A stretch of DNA of 6,492 bases, taken from the NCBI RefSeq assembly GCF_003334255.1, contig NZ_QOWU01000100.1; one strand, written 5' to 3'. Source of the DNA: Escherichia coli (GTDB lineage: Bacteria; Pseudomonadota; Gammaproteobacteria; Enterobacterales; Enterobacteriaceae). A program made the translations under genes and the position numbers. Below are positions 2,160 through 2,228 of this stretch, piece after piece (position 1 is the first letter of the stretch; each line of letters starts with the position of its first letter). Below the pieces are notes generated by a model. That model searched no databases. It had not been told where the DNA came from and worked only from the letters and a program-made list of their open reading frames with translations.

Positions 2160-2177
2160 TAATTTGCGTTAATTTGC
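2160..2177 (+). repeat. Tandem direct repeat TAATTTGC x2 with 10-bp periodicity, directly after the int stop; candidate integrase arm-type or accessory-protein binding site
   Basis: TAATTTGC occurs at 2160-2167 and again at 2170-2177, read directly from the sequence. Position next to int and the att-like palindrome suggests an att function. No binding data. Confidence 0.3.
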
Positions 2178-2228
2178 TCCCCTTTTTTTGATTTAGTCAT
2201 TGAAAAATAAGTAAATCATCAAGGGGAG
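2178..2228. repeat. Nested imperfect palindrome, candidate attL core/crossover region (CTCCCCTT ... TGATTTA ... TAAATCA ... AAGGGGAG)
   Basis: Outer arms 2178-2185 and 2221-2228 are exact reverse complements, as are inner arms 2189-2195 and 2212-2218. The loop contains AAAAATAAG (2205-2213), which matches the start of the P2 att core as I remember it (AAAAAATAAGCCCGTGTAAGGGAGATT). It lies between the int stop and the native dmsA promoter. Confidence 0.35.

Follow-up and report, generated by a model that had tools for sequence, protein, structure and literature searches.

The window analysed here, a stretch of 6,492 nucleotides of an Escherichia coli contig (NZ_QOWU01000100.1, assembly GCF_003334255.1), most probably carries the int-proximal junction (attL, of the B-O-P' type) of a P2-family prophage that is related to PhiECO5 and lies between serS and dmsA, with positions 2160-2228 belonging to the P' arm and including candidate Cox boxes. 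The regulatory end of the prophage fills the left third of the window, and the E. coli dmsABC operon begins at 2456. The first-pass annotation had placed the attachment core within 2160-2228, which misses the true position by about 35-45 bp and picks the wrong strand. The prophage boundary and the site specificity are now fixed, the P2-like type of element and the serS/dmsA site were already known, and the outcome is largely ordinary, leaving the current view of P2-family site-specific recombination unchanged. With relatives at serS/dmsA in ~6% of complete E. coli genomes (344/5,426), the prophage is a common one. Its target is a bidirectional terminator common to serS and a putative sRNA, and its P' arm offers candidate binding sites, which are testable, for an uncharacterised long Cox-type excisionase. 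The candidate Cox boxes, the terminator of serS and STnc130 lost at attL, and a secondary insertion in yfaA are lesser leads open to experiment. The features on which this reading is built are collected in Table 1.

Table 1. Features of the prophage end, the junction and the flanking chromosome, in window coordinates
Feature	Position	Strand	Basis
cox-like gene, 174 aa, predicted excision directionality factor and switch repressor	124-648	-	Pfam PF10743 Phage_Cox
GGTTTGT-TTA-GGTTTAT, direct repeats 10 bp apart at the cox/C switch; candidate Cox boxes	691-707	+	motif match
C-type immunity repressor gene, 113 aa, HTH	753-1094	+	ORF list and RefSeq annotation of orthologues
P2-type tyrosine integrase gene (int)	1164-2156	+	52% identity to P2 Int, full length; Pfam Int_N and Phage_integrase
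P' arm-type Int sites, TGTCCAT twice with 11-bp period, in the 3' end of int	2132-2149	+	match to P2 P' arm TGTCCACACAGTGTCCACA
TAATTTGC twice, direct repeats one helical turn apart; probable (predicted) Cox/RDF boxes	2160-2177	+	P2 Cox footprint position
Long imperfect palindrome/hairpin, outer stem 2174-2184/2221-2231, inner stem 2189-2201/2206-2218	2174-2231	.	folding and seven variants
STnc130 sRNA homologue	2231-2365	-	Rfam RF02084, 124.8 bits (threshold 55), full model length
Extended core region AAATCTCCTGCGGGCGCTTTTTTT	2240-2262	.	positional and sequence counterpart of P2 core
Exact common core CCTGCGGGCG, containing the strand-exchange region	2246-2255	.	attL/attR/attB alignment and yfaA junctions
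dmsA, chromosomal gene flanking attL	2456-4900	+	ORF list and genome matches

The serS/dmsA attachment site and its core

The dmsA side of the window was matched in 5425 of 5426 complete E. coli genomes, and the match continued across int in 344 only. In E. coli genomes with an empty site, the alignment to the window starts at 2240 or 2246 and extends no further left. This empty site (attB) reads serS-TAA...TCTAAAAAGCGCCTGCGGGCGCTTTTTTTGTCTCC, or ...TCTAAAAAGCGCCTGCGGGCGCTTTTTTTG in a shorter form. For the opposite end of the prophage, the predicted serS/phage junction was built as a synthetic query and searched against the genomes, which returned one genome at 100% over 520 nt (DETEC-S792) and 49 genomes at coverage of at least 80%. 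DETEC-S792 has the order serS, a ~36 kb prophage with an identical Int protein, and dmsA, and its int-end sequence around the junction is identical to the window. In JNEC-KY208, positions 1-2400 of the window are present at 99.7% identity and the far junction is the same as that of DETEC-S792.

Aligning the three sites gives AAAAAGCG-CCTGCGGGCG-CTTTTTTTG for attB, AAAAAGCG-CCTGCGGGCG-GTTTTTGCATGAG for attR at the serS end of these two intact lysogens, and GTTAAATCT-CCTGCGGGCG-CTTTTTTTG for attL in the window. In short form these are ...AAAGCG-CCTGCGGGCG-CTTTTTTT, ...AAAGCG-CCTGCGGGCG-GTTTTTGCATG and ...AAATCT-CCTGCGGGCG-CTTTTTTT, respectively. CCTGCGGGCG is thus common to the window, to attR of DETEC-S792 and JNEC-KY208 and to the empty site, and it lies outside 2160-2228; judged by this alignment, it is the strand-exchange core. 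The attP deduced from the junctions would read ...GTGTTAAATCTCCTGCGGGCGGTTTTTGCATGAG, and the restored attB ...AAAGCGCCTGCGGGCGCTTTTTTT. Since no contiguous attP was found with an exact pattern in IMG/VR, with a degenerate pattern in JGI metagenomes and IMG/VR, or by blastn against phage records, the attP of the window phage is a deduced one. Three matching records labelled as phage are extracted prophages with dmsA included.

The genome of STEC2018-607 contains two copies of the prophage, one of them in a secondary site inside yfaA, and the chromosome segment between serS/dmsA and yfaA has been inverted by recombination between the two copies. The empty yfaA site reads GAAAGCAAAGCGCCAGAAGGTGTTTTGCC, with AAAGCGCCAGAAGGTG as the core stretch. 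At the first junction of the yfaA copy AAAGCGCC is joined to TGCGGGCGGTTTTTGCATG (short form, AAAGCGCC to TGCGGGCGG), and at the other AAATCTCC is joined to AGAAGGTGTTTTGCC (short form, AAATCTCC to AGAAGGTG). The yfaA site is identical to the left half of attB at 8/8 positions, and its match over the overlap is poor. Both yfaA junctions switch right after CC, which places one exchange point within positions 2245-2248 of the window. Such a pattern would be expected for a daughter chromosome that inherited one strand of a heteroduplex overlap. From these sequences, the second copy in yfaA argues for past integration activity of the phage, and its current excision competence is only putative. A side listing of the same insertion gives AAAGCGCC joined to AGAAGGTG. 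The gyrA/yfaA left flank in STEC2018-607 was also considered as a misassembly or as a different phage, and this was rejected in favour of the second copy with the inversion.

Arm-type sites, repeats and candidate Cox boxes

The P2-type integrase gene is transcribed towards the core, and 83 nt separate its stop codon from the extended core. The motif at its 3' end, TGTCCAT, is the reverse complement of ATGGACA and fits the P2-type arm consensus tgTGGaCa (PMC3448106). There are only two copies of the arrangement TGTCCATNNNNTGTCCAT in the 42.6-kb lysogen locus, one beside each junction, and both point the same way (expectation 0.04). As the attR-side copy is found ~50 bp beyond the attR core, arm repeats flank the core on both sides. 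Compared across the three sites, 2160-2228 is phage DNA and constitutes the P' arm spacer, with the Int arm-type sites on one side and the core on the other.

Most of the repeat structure described for this spacer in the first-pass annotation stands. TAATTTGC occurs exactly at 2160-2167 and 2170-2177, with a period of 10 bp, and the inner inverted repeat TGATTTA/TAAATCA at 2189-2195/2212-2218 is as it was given, and extends further to 2189-2201/2206-2218 with 11/13 pairs. The outer inverted repeat exists, with its right arm at 2221-2228; its left arm is 2177-2184 and not 2178-2185, an offset of one (CTCCCCTT/AAGGGGAG), and the repeat extends to 2174-2184/2221-2231. The hairpin formed by these arms is far more stable than in shuffled sequences (z = -5.0 on the plus strand and -6.3 on the minus strand), with 0/200 shuffles folding as well. 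We compared seven variants of the arm, namely those of UTI89, ST131, E. albertii, two IMG/VR contigs, the yfaA copy and the window itself. All seven preserve the direct repeat and the palindrome, ATTTG(C/T) persists in both repeats, which vary in concert (GC to GT), TTGAAAAATAAGTAAATCATCA is invariant, and the outer stem has two compensatory pairs. The covariation rests on these seven, as most contigs from the IMG/VR search with Int ended at the int stop, and a scan of genome contigs with the arm-site pattern yielded only E. albertii, an ST131-type copy labelled Chryseobacterium and two unrelated MAG matches. As for the conserved palindrome, it would represent two boxes in inverted orientation or else a hairpin within the int 3' UTR.

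The far arm has a palindrome as well. On the attR side (DETEC-S792 locus 560-600) lies a perfect 11-bp inverted repeat, CTGAAAATAAA-AGGGA-TTTATTTTCAG, which aligns with the annotated IHF site of P2, itself palindromic. Thus, an AT-rich palindrome lies between core and arm sites in either arm.

The product of the cox-like gene matches PF10743 (Phage_Cox) over residues 58-129 with E = 2e-5, and its UTI89 and ST131 orthologue is annotated as 'Cox family DNA-binding protein'; a BLASTP comparison of the protein with P2 Cox was not significant (E = 0.055). The P2 cox-box consensus TTAAA(G/C)NC(A/C) is absent from 2160-2228, as expected from a Cox protein barely alignable to P2 Cox, and the only match with at most one mismatch in 2150-2245 falls at 2234-2242 on the minus strand, outside the interval of the first-pass annotation. 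P2 Cox protects at least 70 nt with six boxes facing both ways (PMC3936717), and the Apl sites of phage 186 are direct repeats one helical turn apart, present at att and at the switch (PMC7498355). A motif built on the repeats here, RRTTTGYNNNRRTTTGY (RRTTTGY-N3-RRTTTGY), has only two matches in the window, of which the copy at the cox/C switch carries one mismatch. In the 42.6-kb lysogen locus it occurs exactly twice, in the P' arm and at the cox/C switch, where the DETEC-S792 equivalent of 691-707 is an exact match. The expectation of an exact match is 0.015, a statistic that is partly circular because the motif was derived after the two sites had been seen. A factor of the Cox/Apl type would be expected to have sites at both places, the att arm and the cox/C switch (PMC7498355). 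Because the motif was defined post hoc, we rate the TAATTTGC repeats as no more than probable Cox (excisionase) boxes.

Several other observations concern the regulatory and far ends of these prophages. The immunity module (649-1094) is mosaic: Int and Cox of the window are 100% identical to those of DETEC-S792, and the C repressor of the window is 73% identical to DETEC-S792 C and 92% identical to the C of the ST131 prophage. A palindrome beside C in the cox/C intergenic region, a possible operator, reads GATACTCGTGCGAGTATC at window 712-729 versus CTTCACCCTGTGGTGAAG in DETEC-S792. Between the attR arm and ogr lie two tandem hok/gef-family toxin genes (DETEC-S792 locus 750-1362; JNEC-KY208 locus 562-1174), and PhiECO5-type relatives have one hok/gef-family gene at that place.

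The shared terminator and alternative readings of the interval

CCTGCGGGCG makes up the loop and the 3' half of a hairpin, AAAAAGCGCC-TGCG-GGCGCTTTTTTT, downstream of serS (-15.4 kcal/mol, ViennaRNA). This hairpin also terminates the sRNA STnc130 on the minus strand, so that the terminator is bidirectional and shared with serS. STnc130 is listed merely as a putative Salmonella sRNA adjoining dmsA (PMC3632133). The homologue in the window is antisense to the dmsA promoter region and scores 124.8 bits with RF02084, versus 140.1 bits in the empty site, 2/8 terminator pairs being broken by the phage junction; the 3' half of its terminator hairpin is phage DNA and its U-tail is shortened to UUU. 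At attR the hairpin is kept, with the phage supplying a replacement 3' half (-12.5 kcal/mol). At attL of the window it is lost (-3.2 kcal/mol, z = 0.3, versus -15.4 in attB), and positions 2233-2265 contain no stable hairpin between int and the dmsA promoter. Terminator strength was judged by ViennaRNA folds, as a consensus terminator scan, which called no terminator in 2000-2500, also missed the serS terminator (empty-site locus 1993-2016; -15.4 kcal/mol, seven-T tail) and is therefore insensitive. TTGATACCGAACAA at 2272-2285, a putative FNR box of dmsA, lies 17 bp past the core, and read-through from int could reach the dmsA promoter.

The proposal of an att core in 2160-2228, its P2-like part being AAAAATAAG, is correct in some of its observations. 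AAAAATAAG is present in the loop region, at 2203-2211, once in the window and beside int, and the P2 core had been given correctly (AF063097 24356-24382, AAAAAATAAGCCCGTGTAAGGGAGATT). The identity over 9 nt is real, although it covers core positions 2-10 and not the first 9 bases, and its chance expectation in the window is 0.07 (at least one copy in 14/200 shuffles). It was also rightly supposed that the phage core is related to but distinct from that of P2, its true counterpart being 2240-2262 (AAATCTCC..GGGCG..TTTTT, int-sense), and the interval does lie inside the int-proximal junction, with the core itself at 2246-2255 and AAAAATAAG no part of it. However, AAAAATAAG lies on the int-sense strand here and is antisense to int in P2, which means that the match is not positional homology; at 2203-2211 it has neither the strand and position of the P2 core nor a repeat at the other junction. 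A second copy of the core had been anticipated at the other prophage end, but neither AAAAATAAG nor TAATTTGC occurs on the attR side, anywhere else in the 42.6-kb locus or in the empty site, where homology begins only at 2240-2246. The comparison of attL, attR and attB, which puts the junction within the alternative range of 2230-2270 that the first-pass annotation had itself named, already refutes a core in the interval, and we give this reading practically no credence. Chance similarity in AT-rich DNA, with the repeats as functionless spacer, is very unlikely: the motifs are short and the chance rate of a 9-mer is non-negligible, but the repeat pair and the palindrome are conserved across variants that differ in the surrounding arm sequence, the stem shows compensatory changes and an extreme hairpin z-score, and the same phased motif recurs elsewhere only at the switch region.

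The other alternatives concern the palindrome. It may act mainly as RNA, as a stable 3' UTR hairpin of the C-int transcript that protects the 3' end or pauses or stops transcription before the dmsA promoter, a role that would count most in a phage type like the present one, whose integration abolishes the serS/STnc130 terminator at attL (-15.4 kcal/mol in attB, -3.2 at attL of the window). Besides the z-score of -5, two pairs change on both sides among the seven variants and 5/5 one-sided changes keep a G-U pair, in the int-sense only, such that int-sense pairing reaches 21-23 of 23 versus 17-21 Watson-Crick pairs (18-21 in antisense RNA). Taken on sequence evidence, the one-sided wobble-compatible substitutions favour an RNA role of the palindrome over a pure protein-site role. 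Nevertheless, the structure was predicted on the plus strand, which biases the wobble count, only seven closely related sequences were compared, and the stem runs into TAAGGTGTG with no U-tract after it, unlike an intrinsic terminator. Furthermore, the 3' arm is invariant and the 5' arm variable, which would fit a 3' arm that doubles as a protein site, and P2 has an equivalent inverted repeat of cox-box-like sequences inside its Cox footprint. On balance, a mainly RNA function seems possible but rather unlikely. The stronger version, in which this RNA element ends or stabilises the C-int transcript and lysogeny rewires the locus, is clearly improbable; if it were true, STnc130 without its terminator would read into antisense int, and int transcription would run towards the dmsA promoter ~20 bp away. 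Expression of P2 int may be modulated via the att region downstream of int, a point that carries no weight in the present argument. A little more doubtful still is the idea that IHF or another host bending protein binds the P' arm at TTGAAAAATAAGTAAATCA, the AT-rich middle of the palindrome. TTGAAAAATAAGTAAATCA is invariant in 7/7 variants and resembles TGAAAATAAAAGGGATTTATTT, the stretch of the other arm that lines up with the IHF site annotated in P2. Yet a search for the IHF consensus WATCAANNNNTTR with at most one mismatch, which does recover the P2 IHF site at one mismatch, gives no match at 2190-2218, in the whole of 2100-2300 or in the deduced attP, and the single annotated IHF site of P2 is on the other arm.

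We thus return to the P' arm reading with Cox boxes, for which the following scheme is suggested. A heterobivalent integrase would bridge the arm sites and the core, and the 174-aa Cox-family protein would bind the phased TAATTTGC repeats and probably also the related inverted GATTTA elements of the palindrome. Its binding would bend the arm, giving an excisive complex at attL and blocking integration, as Cox does in P2. In addition or instead, the 3' end of the C-int transcript may fold into a hairpin through the palindrome.

Comparison with known systems

A named relative is PhiECO5, which is listed at 911187-948481 of UTI89 (Nilsson et al. 2011, PMC3448106). The listed coordinates fall on the G and the T of CCTGCGGG at its two junctions, and the locus has the order serS-prophage-dmsA. 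PhiECO5 coordinates therefore lie in the same core, and both the serS/dmsA site and this kind of element had been catalogued in 2011; literature searches for a serS/dmsA prophage found none. PhiECO5 and its ST131 relatives share with the window phage the serS-dmsA site and the orientation, with Int 87-88% and Cox 82% identical, and their arms are laid out alike, with ATTTG(T/C) repeats, a palindrome and TTGAAAAATAAGTAAATCATCA unchanged. They differ at the core. PhiECO5 and attB have 20 bp of core in common (AAAGCGCCTGCGGGCGCTTT), and integration restores the terminator at attL (-14.7 kcal/mol), whereas in the window phage AAATCT replaces AAAGCG and G replaces C after the core, so that 10 bp are shared; the terminator is lost at attL (-3.2 kcal/mol), and the immunity module is mosaic.

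Two further sequences were noted among the relatives. In an IMG/VR contig with an Int 83% identical, the int-side junction (2560-2900) is followed by the reverse complement of the serS 3' end, the serS part being ~96% identical to E. coli serS; the prophage there lies in the near-palindromic terminator in the opposite orientation, an arrangement that was found in no complete E. coli genome. A 391-bp record labelled Chryseobacterium sp. (CACSKA010000082.1) is identical to E. coli ST131-type int/attL/dmsA-promoter sequence and is probably contamination.

Like the sites of 186 Apl and lambda Xis, the repeats of the window phage are direct repeats about one helical turn apart, located between the core and the arm-type sites. 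Apl and Cox have a further set of sites between the divergent early promoters (PMC7498355), comparable to the candidate boxes at the cox/C switch here. In contrast, the repeat sequences are unrelated to those of Apl and Xis, and binding in the window phage is a prediction.

In P2 (AF063097), the order of attP away from int is the P' arm in the int 3' end, the Cox footprint, the core, the IHF site, the P arm and the ogr terminator. The two phages differ in core sequence and target, P2 using locI and others and the window phage the serS/STnc130 terminator; the core in int-sense is AAATCTCCCTTACACGGGCTTATTTTTT in P2 and AAATCTCCTGCGGGCGGTTTTT in the deduced attP of the window phage, of which only 10 bp are exactly identical to attB. 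Cox is 174 aa here versus 91 aa in P2, nearly twice as long and hardly alignable, the P2 cox-box consensus is missing from 2160-2228, and Int is 52% identical. The deduced attP of the window phage is colinear with that of P2, and 2160-2228 occupies the position of the P2 Cox footprint. Both have C, int and att in that order and ogr at the opposite end. Both phages have two arm-type repeats 11 bp apart in the int 3' end (TGTCCAT here, TGTCCAC in P2), a gap of ~80 bp from the int stop to the core (83 here, 78 in P2) with an inverted repeat in it, a core of the pattern AAATCTCC..GGGC..TTTTT, and a far arm with a region like the P2 IHF-site region, then arm repeats and then a terminator. In the P2 Cox footprint, two inverted cox-box-like copies of TGAAAGCCC fold as a long hairpin (z = -2.7, -3.2). 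Since P2 also has a hairpin in its Cox footprint, a palindrome at this position is a trait of the family.
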